NCBI GenBank assembly: GCA_022779345.1
Contig: JALFTG010000027.1
Span: 10,275-74,274 of the forward strand
Direction: 5' to 3'
DNA from: Oscillospiraceae bacterium
GTDB lineage: Bacteria > Bacillota > Clostridia > Oscillospirales > Oscillospiraceae
Length of the DNA stretch: 64,000 bases
Positions 13,851-50,867 of this stretch are shown here, in pieces (the first letter of the stretch is position 1; every line of letters begins with the position of its first letter). Made by a program: the position numbers and the translations under genes. Below the pieces are notes generated by a model. It had not been told where the DNA came from. It ran no database searches and was given only the letters and a program-made list of their open reading frames with translations.

Positions 13851-13932
13851 TTGGGACAAGGGGCGCATCAGACTTCTCAACAAAACCCGGCGCAGGGGGC
13901 GTATGCCCCCCCTGCGCCGGGTCAACTTGACG

Positions 13933-14100
13933 AAAAAGCTTCGCAGAATTTGCGCCGAATGGCGCAAACAAATCAAATCTGTTTTTTTGTGCGGCTTTGC
14001 TGTGCAAAAAAACACTTCTCGGCCGGCGCAGTGTGCCCGAAGGGTGCATGGAGCGGCCGCAAAGTCTCTGTCGAAAAGCCCCAAAGGGGTTTTTCGACAG
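13933..14100. repeat. A-family repeat, copy 2 (+), bracketed by related hairpins at 13885-13922 and 14105-14140
   Basis: About 95% identical to copy 6 across the shared blocks. Terminal hairpin CTGTCGAAAAGCCCCAAAGGGGTTTTTCGACAG. Confidence 0.85.
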
Positions 14101-14104
14101 ACTC

Positions 14105-14140
14105 ACCCGGCGCGGGGAGTGTACGCTCCCCGCGCCGGGC
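14105..14140 (-). terminator. GC-rich hairpin downstream of greA and the small ORF
   Basis: ACCCGGCGCGGGGAG-TGTAC-GCTCCCCGCGCCGGGC. Confidence 0.5.
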
Positions 14141-16990: not shown

Positions 16991-17067
16991 TGGTACGCCG
17001 TAAGGGATTCGAACCCCTGACCTTCTGGTCCGTAGCCAGACGCTCTATCCAGCTGAGCTAACGGCGC
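16991..17067 (-). tRNA. tRNA-Arg (anticodon ACG), CCA encoded
   Basis: Folded by hand as a cloverleaf. Anticodon loop CTACGGA, T-loop TTCGAAT, D-loop AGCTGGATA. Positions 1:72 form a G:U wobble. Confidence 0.9.
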
Positions 17068-17166
17068 ATACTCTCTTTAAGAGTGCTTTAGTATAATAGC
17101 ACAGCCGGATAGGGAATGCAAGCCTTTTTTTACAAAAATCCCAAAAATTATTTTTTCTGCCGCATG

Positions 17167-17321
17167 GCCTCGCAGAGTTCGCGTCCGCAGATGCGAAAAA
17201 AGTCCAATCCTTTTTTCCGGCAGCTTTGCCGCCGGAAAAACACTTCTCGGCCGCAAGTGTGCCCGCAGGGCGCACGCAGTCGGCCGCATCTCTCAATCAA
17301 GGGGCATCGCCCCTTGATTGA
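17167..17321. repeat. A-family repeat, copy 3 (+), divergent variant
   Basis: Keeps GCCTCGCAGAGTT, CACTTCTCGGCC and GGCCGCA. The central hairpin is changed to TTTTTCCGGC...GCCGGAAAAA (compensatory). Confidence 0.6.
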
Positions 17322-17327
17322 CTCTTT

Positions 17328-47527: not shown

Positions 47528-48760
47528 ATGACAAGTACCGAAACCAGCATGAAACGCTACTATCCCACTGCCCTGGCCCTGTATATCACCTACTTCGTTC
47601 TGGGCGTGGCCGCCTCCATCATGGGGCATTACAAACAGGAATTCGCCGCCCTGTGGGGCGCGCAGCTCCTGTCCGACGGAACTTATGATGTGTCCACGGT
47701 TGTGGCCGTCATCGCCGCCATCGGCCTGGGCCGTCTGATCGCCTTCCCCTTCGCCGGTCCTCTGTCTGACAGAGTGGGCCGCCGGGTCCCGGCACTGATC
47801 GGCTGTGTCATGTACGCGGTGTTCCTGCTGGGCATCACCTACACCCGCAATCTGTATCTGGGCTACGCCATGGCCATCATCAGCGGCATGGCAAACTCTT
47901 TCCTGGACACCAGCATCACCCCCTCCTGCATGGAGATTTTCAAGGAAAAGGGCACCATCGCCAACATCTTCACCAAACTGTCCATCTCCATCGCCCAGTT
48001 CCTGCTGCCCTTCGCCATCGGATTTGTGGCCGCCCGGAGCCTGCCTTTCAATCTGGTGTTCCTGGCCACCGCCGTCATCATCATCGTGGACGGCATCGCC
48101 CTGTGCTTCCTGCCCTTTCCGCCCTTTGAGAAGCCGGAGAAGGCCGAAAACGGGGAGAAGGAGAAGATGCACTTCACCCCCTCCGCTGTCATCCTGGTGA
48201 TTCTGGGCTTCACCACCTCCACCACCTTCATGCTGTGGATGAACTGCAACCAGGAGCTGGGCCTGCTCTACGGCCTGTCCGACCCCAGCAAAATCCAGTC
48301 CTTCTACGCCGTGGGCATCGTGCTGGCCCTGTTTGTGAACGCCGCCCTGCTGAACCGGGGCCTGAAACCCAGCAAAATTCTGATCATTTATCCCACCATC
48401 GCCCTGGTCACGCTGGCCGTGGTCTACTTCGTCCAGACCCCCTGGATCTGCCTGGCAGGCGGGGCACTGATGGGCTTCTTCGCCGCCGGCGGCGTGCTCC
48501 AGCTGGTCACCGCTGTGGCCAATGAGATGTTCCCGAAGAACCGGGGCGTCATCACCTCCATCGTGATGATCTCCTCCAGCATCGCCAACTTCACCATTCT
48601 GAATGTGGCCAGCCTGCTGACCCGCATGGGCGGCACCAACGGCCCCCGGCTGGTGCTGCTGCTGAACATCGCTGTCACCCTGGTCGGCATCATCCTGGCC
48701 GTCATCCTGAACACCCGCATCGAAAAGGACATGGAAAGTCATTCAAACCTGTCGGTTTGA
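47528..48760 (+). CDS. MFS transporter (12 TM)
   Basis: ..FAGPLSDRVGRR.. loop motif. The last 7 codons and the stop lie inside A-family repeat copy 4. Confidence 0.8.
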   Translation: MTSTETSMKRYYPTALALYITYFVLGVAASIMGHYKQEFAALWGAQLLSDGTYDVSTVVAVIAAIGLGRLIAFPFAGPLSDRVGRRVPALIGCVMYAVFLLGITYTRNLYLGYAMAIISGMANSFLDTSITPSCMEIFKEKGTIANIFTKLSISIAQFLLPFAIGFVAARSLPFNLVFLATAVIIIVDGIALCFLPFPPFEKPEKAENGEKEKMHFTPSAVILVILGFTTSTTFMLWMNCNQELGLLYGLSDPSKIQSFYAVGIVLALFVNAALLNRGLKPSKILIIYPTIALVTLAVVYFVQTPWICLAGGALMGFFAAGGVLQLVTAVANEMFPKNRGVITSIVMISSSIANFTILNVASLLTRMGGTNGPRLVLLLNIAVTLVGIILAVILNTRIEKDMESHSNLSV

Positions 48761-48899
48761 ATGAGAATTTGCGGACGCTCCATGCACTCGCTGCGCTCGC
48801 ACACTCCGCCGTCCGATCAGTGTTTTTTGGCACAGCAAAGCCGCACCAAAAAACAGATTGAAATTTCTTTGTGCCTATCGGCACAAATTCTGCGAAGCA
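48739..48899. repeat. A-family repeat, copy 4 (- orientation)
   Basis: The reverse complement carries GCTTCGCAGAATTTG, TTTTGGTGCGGCTTTGCTGTGCCAAAA and a terminal hairpin TCATTCAAACC..GGTTTGAATGA. Confidence 0.8.
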
Positions 48900-48947
48900 A
48901 TTTCAAAAACCGGGAAAACCATACAATTAAAATTGGAGGACACAAAC

Positions 48948-49796
48948 ATGAGTAAGAAACATCCTGTTACCGTCAGTTCCTGGACCCTGGGCGATCAGTG
49001 CACCTTTGAAGAGCGGGTCCGCGCAGCAAAAGAGGCCGGTTTTGAGGGCATCGGCCTGCGGGCTGAGACCTATGTGGACGCCCTGAACGAGGGCCTGTTC
49101 GACGAAGACATCCTGGCCATCCTGGATAAATACGACATGAAGGTCACGGAAGTGGAATACATCGTCCAGTGGGCGGAGGACCACCGGTCCTATGAGCAGA
49201 AGTACAAGGAGCAGATGTGCTTCCATATGTGCGAACTGTTCGGCGTGGACCACATCAACTGCGGCCTCATGGAGAACTACTCCGTAGAGCACACTGCCCA
49301 GAAGCTGAAAGAGCTGTGCCACCGGGCGGGCAAGTACACCATCGGCGTGGAGCCCATGCCCTACAGCGGTCTGCCCGATGTGAAGAAGGCCTGGGCCGTG
49401 GTGGAGGCCTCCGGCTGCGAAAACGCCAAGCTGATCCTGGACTCTTGGCACTACATCCGGGCCGGTCAGCCCTGCGACCTGTCCGTGTTGGAGGGCATCC
49501 CCGCCGACAAGATCGTGTCCATCCAGATCAACGATGTGCAGGCACACCCCTATGCCAGGAGCATTCTTCGGGACGAGTCCATGCATGACCGGATGCTCCC
49601 CGGCACCGGCTACGGCGACACCACCGGCTTCGTGAAGATGATTCGGGACAAGGGCATCTCCCCCGCCGTGGTGGGCGTGGAAGTCATCAGCGACGAGATC
49701 CTCTCCGCCGGTGTCCCCGCCGCCGCACAGGCGAACTTTAAAGCCACCCAGGCTGTACTCTCTAAATCCTGGCCCGAAGTCATGGCCGGCTGCTAA
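48948..49796 (+). CDS. xylose-isomerase-like TIM-barrel protein (sugar phosphate isomerase/epimerase family); candidate 3-dehydroshikimate dehydratase
   Basis: 282 aa with ..AGFEGIGLR.., ..GVEPMP.., ..LDSWH.., ..GVEVIS... Fold, size and context resemble AsbF/QsuB-type enzymes. The specific activity is inferred only. Confidence 0.7.
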   Translation: MSKKHPVTVSSWTLGDQCTFEERVRAAKEAGFEGIGLRAETYVDALNEGLFDEDILAILDKYDMKVTEVEYIVQWAEDHRSYEQKYKEQMCFHMCELFGVDHINCGLMENYSVEHTAQKLKELCHRAGKYTIGVEPMPYSGLPDVKKAWAVVEASGCENAKLILDSWHYIRAGQPCDLSVLEGIPADKIVSIQINDVQAHPYARSILRDESMHDRMLPGTGYGDTTGFVKMIRDKGISPAVVGVEVISDEILSAGVPAAAQANFKATQAVLSKSWPEVMAGC

Positions 49797-49797
49797 T

Positions 49798-49964
49798 GTC
49801 GTTTGAAGCCCCGCAGGGGCTTCAAACGAGAAAATTGCGGCCGCTGCGCGCACCCTGCGGGCACACTCCGCTGGCCGAGAAGTGTTTTTTGGCACAGCGA
49901 AGCCGCACCAAAAAACGGATGAAAATTCATTCGGTGCTGACGCGCCGAACTCTGCGAGGCTTTT
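49798..49964. repeat. A-family repeat, copy 5 (- orientation)
   Basis: Terminal hairpin GTCGTTTGAAGCCCCGCAGGGGCTTCAAACGA(g), then GGCCGAGAAGTGTTTTTTGGCACAGCGAAGCCGCACCAAAAAA. Confidence 0.8.
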
Positions 49965-49991: not shown

Positions 49992-50867
49992 ATGGAAAAC
50001 AGAATCAACGGACATACCCGCCTCTTCTGCCTGATCGGCTCCCCCGTGGGCCACTCCGGCTCCCCCGCCATGTATAACTACAGCTTCGACCGTCTGGGTC
50101 TGGACAACGCCTACCTGGCCTTCGACATTCCTCTGGAAAAGACCGGCGAGGCCGTGGAAGCCCTGAAACTGCTCCATGTGGGCGGATTCAACATCACCAT
50201 GCCCTGCAAGACCGAGGTGGCCAAATACCTGGACGATCTGTCCCCCGCCGCCCGTCTGATCGGCGCCTGCAACACCGTCACCGTCAGCGAGGACGGCAAG
50301 CTCACCGGCCACAACACCGACGGCGTCGGCTTTGTCCGCAACCTGAAAGAGCACGGTGTGGATGTGGCCGGCAAGAAGATCGTGGTTCTGGGCGCCGGCG
50401 GCGCCGCCACCGCTGTGACCATCCAGTGCGCTCTGAGCGGCGCCAGCGAGGTCCATATCTTCAACCGCAAGGGCTACAACTTCTATGAAAACGGCGAGCA
50501 CACCGTGGAGAAGATCCGCGCCAATGTCCCCGGCTGCCAGGCATCCATCGACAATCTGCTGGATTCCGCCGCCCTGGCCGAGGCCGTGGGCAGCTGCGAC
50601 ATTCTGGTCAACGCCACCAAGGTGGGCATGGCCCCCCTGGACGGCGAGACCCTCATCGATTCCAGCCTGTTCCGCCCCGATCTGGTGGTGGCGGACACCG
50701 TGTATAACCCCCGGGAGACCCGCATGATCCGGGAAGCCCAGGCGGCCGGCTGCAAAGCGGCCATCGGCGGCATCGGCATGCTGCTCCAGCAGGGCGTGGA
50801 GGCCTTCCACCTGTTCACCGGCAAGGATATGCCTGCCCAGGAGGTTATGGAGAAGTTTTTCTCCTGA
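49992..50867 (+). CDS. quinate/shikimate dehydrogenase, YdiB-like, paralogue 2
   Basis: ..GSPAMYNYSF.., NTVTVSEDGKLTGHNTDG, FNRKGYNFY, ILVNATKVGM, FTGKDMP. Confidence 0.85.
   Translation: MENRINGHTRLFCLIGSPVGHSGSPAMYNYSFDRLGLDNAYLAFDIPLEKTGEAVEALKLLHVGGFNITMPCKTEVAKYLDDLSPAARLIGACNTVTVSEDGKLTGHNTDGVGFVRNLKEHGVDVAGKKIVVLGAGGAATAVTIQCALSGASEVHIFNRKGYNFYENGEHTVEKIRANVPGCQASIDNLLDSAALAEAVGSCDILVNATKVGMAPLDGETLIDSSLFRPDLVVADTVYNPRETRMIREAQAAGCKAAIGGIGMLLQQGVEAFHLFTGKDMPAQEVMEKFFS

Follow-up and report, generated by a model that had tools for sequence, protein, structure and literature searches.

Six copies of a multi-hairpin element in the window

The element under study, at the position shown above, lies between two copies of a GC-rich hairpin that forms the terminator of a greA gene transcribed from the - strand. 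The stretch of DNA analyzed here (64,000 nucleotides; 'the window') is contig C46 of a metagenome-assembled genome (MAG) of 1.92 Mb, with 60% G+C and 93% completeness. The original prediction, made from the letters alone, described an 'A-family' of six intergenic copies of a ~170-nt multi-hairpin sequence with compensatory stem changes, consistent either with a family of structured-RNA genes or with a mobile element of REP/MITE type. Our covariance model of the family, R1, recovers exactly six copies in the window, at 135-166 bits, with coordinates identical to those first proposed or a few bases off; no seventh full copy was found with this model. All six are indeed intergenic. Their mean column identity is 70% over about 170 nt, and the blocks first quoted as conserved are common to all of them. 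Table 1 lists these copies with their modules and neighbors.

Table 1. A-family copies and associated features in the window (position 1 is the first letter of the window), and derivative copies at other loci
Feature	Position	Strand	Model hit	Remarks
Copy 1	139..334	+	R1, 161-334, 160 bits	Sense; a gene ends before it (stop near 117) and a metallo-beta-lactamase-fold gene (Pfam) starts after it (354)
Upstream duplicated target hairpin of copy 2	13885..13921			greA terminator, read on the - strand; T-run follows on the - strand
Copy 2 (reported copy)	13922..14104	+	R1, 13934-14104, 157 bits
Copy 2, left terminal repeat	13922-13939
Copy 2, P0	13940-13948
Copy 2, P1	13949-13968
Copy 2, P2	13981-14013
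Copy 2, conserved block	14014-14024
Copy 2, P3	14020-14059
Copy 2, P4	14068-14100
Copy 2, right terminal repeat	14086-14104
Downstream duplicated target hairpin of copy 2	14105..14139			Direct-repeat score 18 (control maximum 11.5)
tRNA gene	16994-17067	-	65.7 bits	About 100 nt from copy 3
Copy 3	17163..17324	+	R1, 135 bits	Divergent subfamily; 3' end 4-8 nt off the stop of a - strand ORF (17328-17549)
Copy 4	48736..48902	-	R1, 153 bits	Antisense; in a spacer, with an MFS transporter gene (to 48760, +) on one side and a xylose-isomerase-like TIM-barrel gene (48948-49796, +) on the other
Copy 5	49796..49964	-	R1, 145 bits	Antisense; spacer flanked by the TIM-barrel gene and by one for shikimate dehydrogenase (49992-50867, +)
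Upstream duplicated target hairpin of copy 6	57548..57581			34-bp terminator hairpin; direct-repeat score 21.5
Copy 6	57582..57768	+	R1, 57593-57768, 166 bits	Between convergent genes 56619-57485 (+) and 57805-59421 (-)
Downstream duplicated target hairpin of copy 6	57769..57802			Terminator hairpin; direct repeat with 57548-57581
Derivative copies	G000:C62 near 3670 (-); C61:8571-8653; C24:46438-46516; C99:927-970; C177:28-243			See text

Two boundaries had to be revised. The figure of ~170 nt holds for the aligned part, but the terminal repeats bring the element to about 183 bp, as in copy 2. In copy 1, the R1 hit begins at 161 and not at 139; here the P0 mini-hairpin region is present twice in tandem, and positions 139-161 are the 23-nt extra copy. 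Such a duplicate (AAAAAGCTTCGCAGAAATTAGC) precedes the normal start in one subfamily and is also present at G000:C88:2402-2567. Copies 4 and 5 occupy two spacers of the same operon (MFS - TIM-barrel - shikimate dehydrogenase), both in antisense orientation.

A conserved, covarying and strand-biased core

We built a structure alignment of 54 sequences, 35 from the source genome and 19 from other Oscillospiraceae. RNAalifold predicted four helices, to which we added the mini-hairpin P0, giving five stems (P0-P4) and 35 pairs. The 5' half of the element comprises a terminal repeat, P0 (YTC-GCA-GAR), P1, a linker AAT-CYG and P2 (a T6...A6 stem); the 3' half comprises ACACTTCTCGGCC, P3 (an outer GGCC stem and an inner stem of variable length), P4 and the second terminal repeat. 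The compensatory changes announced from the window copies are borne out in this larger sample: the 35 pairs are 95.9% paired, versus 41-51% when partners are slid by 1-3 columns. Changes on both sides are found in 21 pairs, and 211 cells of the 54-sequence alignment carry one. None of 500 column shuffles equaled the real alignment on any of five measures.

The G:U pairs that had suggested a better fit to RNA in the central hairpin turn out to be a general property, the given strand being more stable than its complement. This strand folds better in 44 of the source genome's 53 copies (mean -75.3 versus -68.0 kcal/mol, p = 1e-7) and in 18/20 foreign copies. Several pairs are G:U on the given strand, and one U:G is retained in 53 of 54 sequences. 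From these pairs and the strand-biased folding, we infer that selection acts on one particular strand in a single-stranded form. The core P0-P3, which is conserved, covarying and strand-biased, must act single-stranded, be it as top-strand DNA in transposition or as RNA.

May the core then be a functional structured RNA, either a small RNA or a cis-acting UTR module, carried by the element for the benefit of the host or of the element itself? The 21 covarying pairs, the near-invariant U:G, the more stable folding of the + strand and the conservation of unpaired blocks in 36 of 61 genera all argue in this direction. However, G:T pairs form in single-stranded DNA too, and the strand bias is equally seen with DNA energy parameters. 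Rfam searches at the gathering score returned tRNA only and no match for the A-family. At E <= 10, they returned only sub-threshold FinP-like matches (best 35.6 versus 45 bits), mostly on the flanking GC terminator hairpins, with one that also spans P4. A sigma-70-like promoter was not found in the three copies scanned. We consider such an RNA function a real but rather unlikely possibility, to which we return below with the arrangement of the core in larger elements and the orientation of older copies.

Terminal repeats, target duplications and empty sites

Alignment with 40-nt flanks shows the same GC hairpin, specific to each locus, on both sides of many copies. The insert between these direct repeats measures 169-187 bp, and copies differ by many insertions and deletions, which agrees with the initial remark that no reading frame is conserved. 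Its terminal inverted repeats are imperfect: the left end, TCAGCTTGTCGAAAAAGC, matches the reverse complement of the right end, TGAGTCTGTCGGAAAAC, at 13 of 20 positions. The repeats share the core TGTCGAAAAAG, and TGTC(G/A)AAAAAG is retained in other genera. Flanking direct repeats were detected in 22 of 61 near-full copies, with scores of 12-32 as compared to a maximum of 11.5 for control pairs made of mismatched flanks. Two window copies, 2 and 6, are among them; no flanking duplication was detected at copies 1 and 3.

Perfect duplications are 23-32 bp long, and the whole set ranges from 19 to 38 bp (mean 29.7 bp, SD 4). Duplications end where the palindrome does, leaving a slack of 0-3 nt at its 5' foot and usually of 0-1 nt at its 3' foot; duplication length equals that of the palindrome plus 0-3 nt and tracks the palindrome of each locus. 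These offsets were read directly, since A/T tracts extend the helix in RNAfold hairpin spans computed with 8-nt margins. Insertion targets are palindromic DNA, mostly intrinsic terminators, and the lone apparent non-hairpin target (C28, 32 bp) is on inspection an imperfect palindrome. The same hairpin-duplication footprint is seen in Dysosmobacter, Oscillibacter and several uncultured genera.

At two loci, G000:C142:16373-16529 and G000:C34:1120-1285, the duplication extends 7-10 nt beyond the hairpin, and the extra bases (CAGCTTG..., CAGCTTATCA) resemble the element's own left end. By analogy, these overlong duplications may result from insertion beside a repeat-like sequence, a behavior known for IS30. 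In copy 2, the two hairpins differ at several positions while both keep full pairing (CAGGGGG/CCCCCTG versus CGGGGAG/CTCCCCG); either both greA-terminator duplicates are selected as hairpins or there is conversion between arms.

Duplications of this length recall the IS1202 subgroup, which makes unusually long duplications of 27-28 bp in Firmicutes (bioRxiv 10.1101/2022.12.17.520857; PMC10132070), close to the A-family mean. That a transposase of this subgroup moves the A-family is nonetheless very improbable: its duplication length is fixed, whereas perfect A-family duplications vary with the palindrome they follow; its ends are TGT...ACA, unlike those of the A-family; no hairpin targeting is reported for it; and no ISNCY_2 or rve hit was found in the genus. 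It was the palindrome-tracking length that led us to drop this candidate.

Presence/absence at an orthologous site, suggested at the outset as a check, was observed at copy 6. In three sister species (G001, G002 and G005) the site is empty and holds a single bidirectional terminator hairpin without any element. A fourth sister species has an element with one hairpin. We also found derivatives in the form of internally deleted copies and of one copy with an insertion: a solitary P4, copies devoid of P0-P2, one copy lacking P2 and half of P3, and one with a 47-nt insertion in P3. Taken together, ends, duplications, empty sites and derivatives identify the element as a MITE, with a duplication length dictated by the structure of its target.

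The initial suggestion of a 'REP/MITE-type' element thus survives in its MITE half, with terminal inverted repeats, target duplications, presence/absence at an orthologous site, internally deleted derivatives and, as described below, an IS30-family relative with the same ends. The REP half does not fit: A-family insertions are flanked by duplications, which REP elements do not make. REP/REPIN elements, marked by a GT[AG]G head and an associated RAYT gene, were rejected; no GTAG head is present in the copies read. We regard it as very probable that the A-family is a hairpin-duplicating MITE.

Spread of the A-family in the genome and in Oscillospiraceae

A search of the 1.92-Mb genome with nhmmer yields 79 hits, 53 of them full length. 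The family amounts to about 70 copies in this genome, a density of about one copy per 27 kb that is far above chance. Matches to a conserved 17-mer occur in more than 50 Oscillospiraceae contigs, including those of the cultured Pseudoflavonifractor capillosus and Colidextribacter, and R1 finds the A-family in 36 of the 61 genera sampled in the bacterial family, often with at least 44 copies per genome. Conservation across genera extends to P0-P3 with their unpaired blocks and G:U pairs, for which plain MITE status gives no account.

The subfamily with fresh duplications in the source genome has a right end that we did not find in other species, and an exact 19-mer of the A-family right end produced chance hits only in public genomes. 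In a single-cell assembly of candidate division KSB1, this 19-mer is located ~30-60 nt from four contig ends (L100-L103). R1 detects no A-family element on these contigs, and the occurrences are possibly a library or assembly artefact.

A candidate transposase in the IS30 family

The 93%-complete source MAG contains no IS30-clade transposase, rve domain or inner repeat detectable by family searches, tblastn or motif search. A terminal-repeat pattern scan for a parent element returned nothing, and an all-against-all proteome search revealed no multi-copy protein family. In relatives and in metagenome contigs, we found an IS30-family clade that carries the MITE-type terminal repeat (TTGTCAAA.AAG), with TTGTCAA..AAG common to inner and outer repeats. 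Transposases of this clade combine the rve and HTH_38 domains (PF00665 and PF13936; precomputed Pfam, P0001-P0120) and have NF033563 hits; some sources name relatives 'IS30 family transposase'.

Several genomes and contigs physically link this clade to the A-family. In G049, which has 66 R1 hits, seven contigs are broken at a multi-copy IS30 element with the ends CTCAGCCTGACAAAGAAG... and ...CTTCTTTGACAAGCTGAG. The second of these is identical to the right end of that genome's MITEs, and the A core is joined directly to the IS30 body in several contigs. A peptide-pattern search of genome contigs for the G049 transposase retrieved distant relatives only. In G253, the transposase gene sits between P1 and P2. 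One contig runs from a terminator hairpin through terminal repeat-P0-P1 and GGTAGATTTACAATACAAGTGCAAC into the 5' part of the gene, which encodes a 338-aa transposase; a second has this gene followed by GTTGCACTTGACTTGACAATTCGCC, P2-P3-P4-terminal repeat and a terminator hairpin. The two sides match nhmmer model positions 2-44 (left) and 43-170 (right). A modules also adjoin the transposase gene in metagenome contigs L197 and L198. At 29 further loci of the clade, drawn from four sub-lineages, R1 hits lie at or overlap the ends of the transposase gene in 12 cases, against about 1.5 expected from copy density by our rough estimate. The transposase body is found in the P1-P2 linker or in the P4 loop, in either orientation.

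In a short form of the element (L204), the order is hairpin, GAGACTGTCAAAAAAGG...body...CTCTTTGACAAACTG, hairpin, with the junctions GAGACTGTCAAAAAAGGCCGTCG before and CGACGGCTCTTTGACAAACTG after the body, each abutting a hairpin on its outer side. The outer ends of the candidate autonomous element are therefore of the MITE terminal-repeat type. Judging from its sequence, the MITE hairpin P4 is itself a pair of abutted terminal repeats. This configuration is reminiscent of the IR-IR junction, a known intermediate of IS30. In L198, a JGI metagenome contig of 1692 bp, P2-P3-P4 copies in inverted orientation lie to either side of the transposase gene. They amount to terminal inverted repeats of about 150 bp, and the terminator hairpins that their outer ends abut are different. 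We recovered no complete IS30 copy between two duplicates of one hairpin; in both L204 and L198, the hairpins at the two ends differ from each other.

The same arrangements may be read in another way. The MITE could be moved by some other enzyme, with the IS30 clade a frequent guest that inserts into palindromes and repeat-like sequences; that the body occurs at two sites and in both orientations also fits an IS30 element that merely prefers A elements as landing sites. Identical transposases are found with and without adjacent A modules (P0108: 2/8 loci), and many A-rich genomes have no IS30: the near-complete genome G072, with at least 34 A-family copies, has no rve domain, and A-family and IS30 show no co-variation in presence over the 61 sampled genomes, although insertion sequences are lost from MAGs. 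Within the family sample, the other IS30 loci (L116-L126) have neither A modules nor the shared repeat. Against a mere guest stand the TTGTCAA..AAG common to inner and outer repeats and the MITE-type outer ends that abut hairpins in L204. Moreover, no other transposase family was found adjoining the elements, the source genome offers no multi-copy protein family as a substitute, and a hairpin-duplicating member is already known in the IS30 family. On this balance, we judge the guest scenario unlikely and the tie between the A-family and one IS30-family clade probable. Our preferred description, in which we place somewhat better than even confidence, is that the A-family is a non-autonomous, hairpin-duplicating MITE of ~170-190 bp whose enzyme most likely belongs to this clade.

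These composites also bear on the function of the core. In IS30 composites, the core is either divided, with P0-P1 away from P2-P4, or turned around with respect to the transposase gene. It is thus neither a fixed mRNA leader nor one fixed transcript, which speaks against a carried functional RNA. The core may work in cis as a folded DNA single strand, or it may be an RNA. A bolder proposal, which we consider quite doubtful, would make it no passive cargo but a single-stranded cofactor, either RNA or top-strand DNA, on which the IS30-clade transposase depends or by which it is steered to hairpins. If true, this would amount to structure-guided transposition in which a folded non-coding module travels with its enzyme gene or apart from it.

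Comparison with known elements

Among the closest parallels is IS1630 of Mycoplasma fermentans, a member of the IS30 family. Later articles summarize it as targeting inverted repeats whose sequence varies and leaving them duplicated; in strain M64 the duplications measure 16-26 bp (Calcutt et al. 1999, J Bacteriol 181:7597, cited through PMC3317919, PMC7648426). Going by these summaries, IS1630 shares with the A-family the long, variable duplication of inverted-repeat targets, and with its candidate enzyme the same IS family (HTH_38 and rve). In the same accounts, IS1630 is an autonomous mollicute element of 1.2-1.4 kb, whereas the A-family is gene-less, 170-190 bp long and found in Oscillospiraceae, and differs from the element so described in its duplications of up to 38 bp, its tens of copies per genome and its conserved multi-hairpin core.

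IS1272/TnSha1, of the IS1182 family in staphylococci, also targets terminator hairpins, which it recognizes by shape and not by sequence (PMC4923244, PMC5678879). Unlike the A-family, it leaves its target unduplicated and removes part of the hairpin, and its transposase is of another family. Because the A-family duplicates whole hairpins, IS1182/IS1272 was rejected as its source. Correia, RUP, BOX, ERIC and REP/REPIN sequences are likewise small, non-coding, multi-copy, intergenic and hairpin-folding, and are often co-transcribed with their neighbors (reviewed in PMC3184786). Classical MITEs and interspersed repeats of this kind differ from the A-family in having duplications of 0-9 bp or none. 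We know of no classical bacterial MITE or repeat that duplicates a whole terminator or covaries this deeply across genera. The probable link between an IS30 clade and a hairpin-duplicating MITE is the new contribution of this work.

Proposed mechanism and effects on host transcription

IS30 itself makes duplications of 2-3 bp. Since A-family duplications equal the palindrome plus 0-3 nt, a short-stagger attack is the simplest model. We propose that the palindrome would be extruded as a cruciform or hairpin and that a DDE transposase with an ordinary short stagger would attack both strands at its base. DNA synthesis along the two arms during repair would then leave the whole palindrome on either side of the element. 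The enzyme would most likely come from the one IS30-family clade (HTH_38 and rve) to which the shared repeat motif and physical linkage point. Whole-palindrome duplication would be a rare footprint of structure-guided target choice by a DDE transposase, and a named candidate clade opens the mechanism to laboratory tests.

Insertion into a terminator should affect the upstream gene. The first copy of the hairpin loses its T-run, and the upstream transcript should read through to the second copy. At copy 2, greA transcripts (- strand) meet, in this order, a hairpin without T-run, the antisense element and a hairpin with T-run. A crude gene caller places a gene end on the P4 side of the element in 43 of 59 cases. 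With equally crude gene calls, antisense copies outnumber sense copies 24:10 between co-directional genes, and by about 20:5 among copies without detectable duplication. These ratios hint that the sense-strand fold is selected against inside operons; for the older copies, they also suggest that the sense RNA matters, as would be expected of a functional structured RNA.

A-family elements are located at gene ends, in tens of copies in the genera that carry them, in abundant gut bacteria (Oscillospiraceae), where insertions strip the T-run from one terminator copy and lengthen the 3' UTR, or fill an operon spacer. The family therefore probably rewires transcription ends on a large scale. Its elements also break MAG assemblies and could pass for small-RNA genes, and the covariance model should thus be useful for annotation. 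Lastly, several REP-like GC hairpins headed by GTAGGGG are present at G000:C150, ~100-230 nt upstream of an A-family element at 2344-2514; they constitute a separate repeat family.
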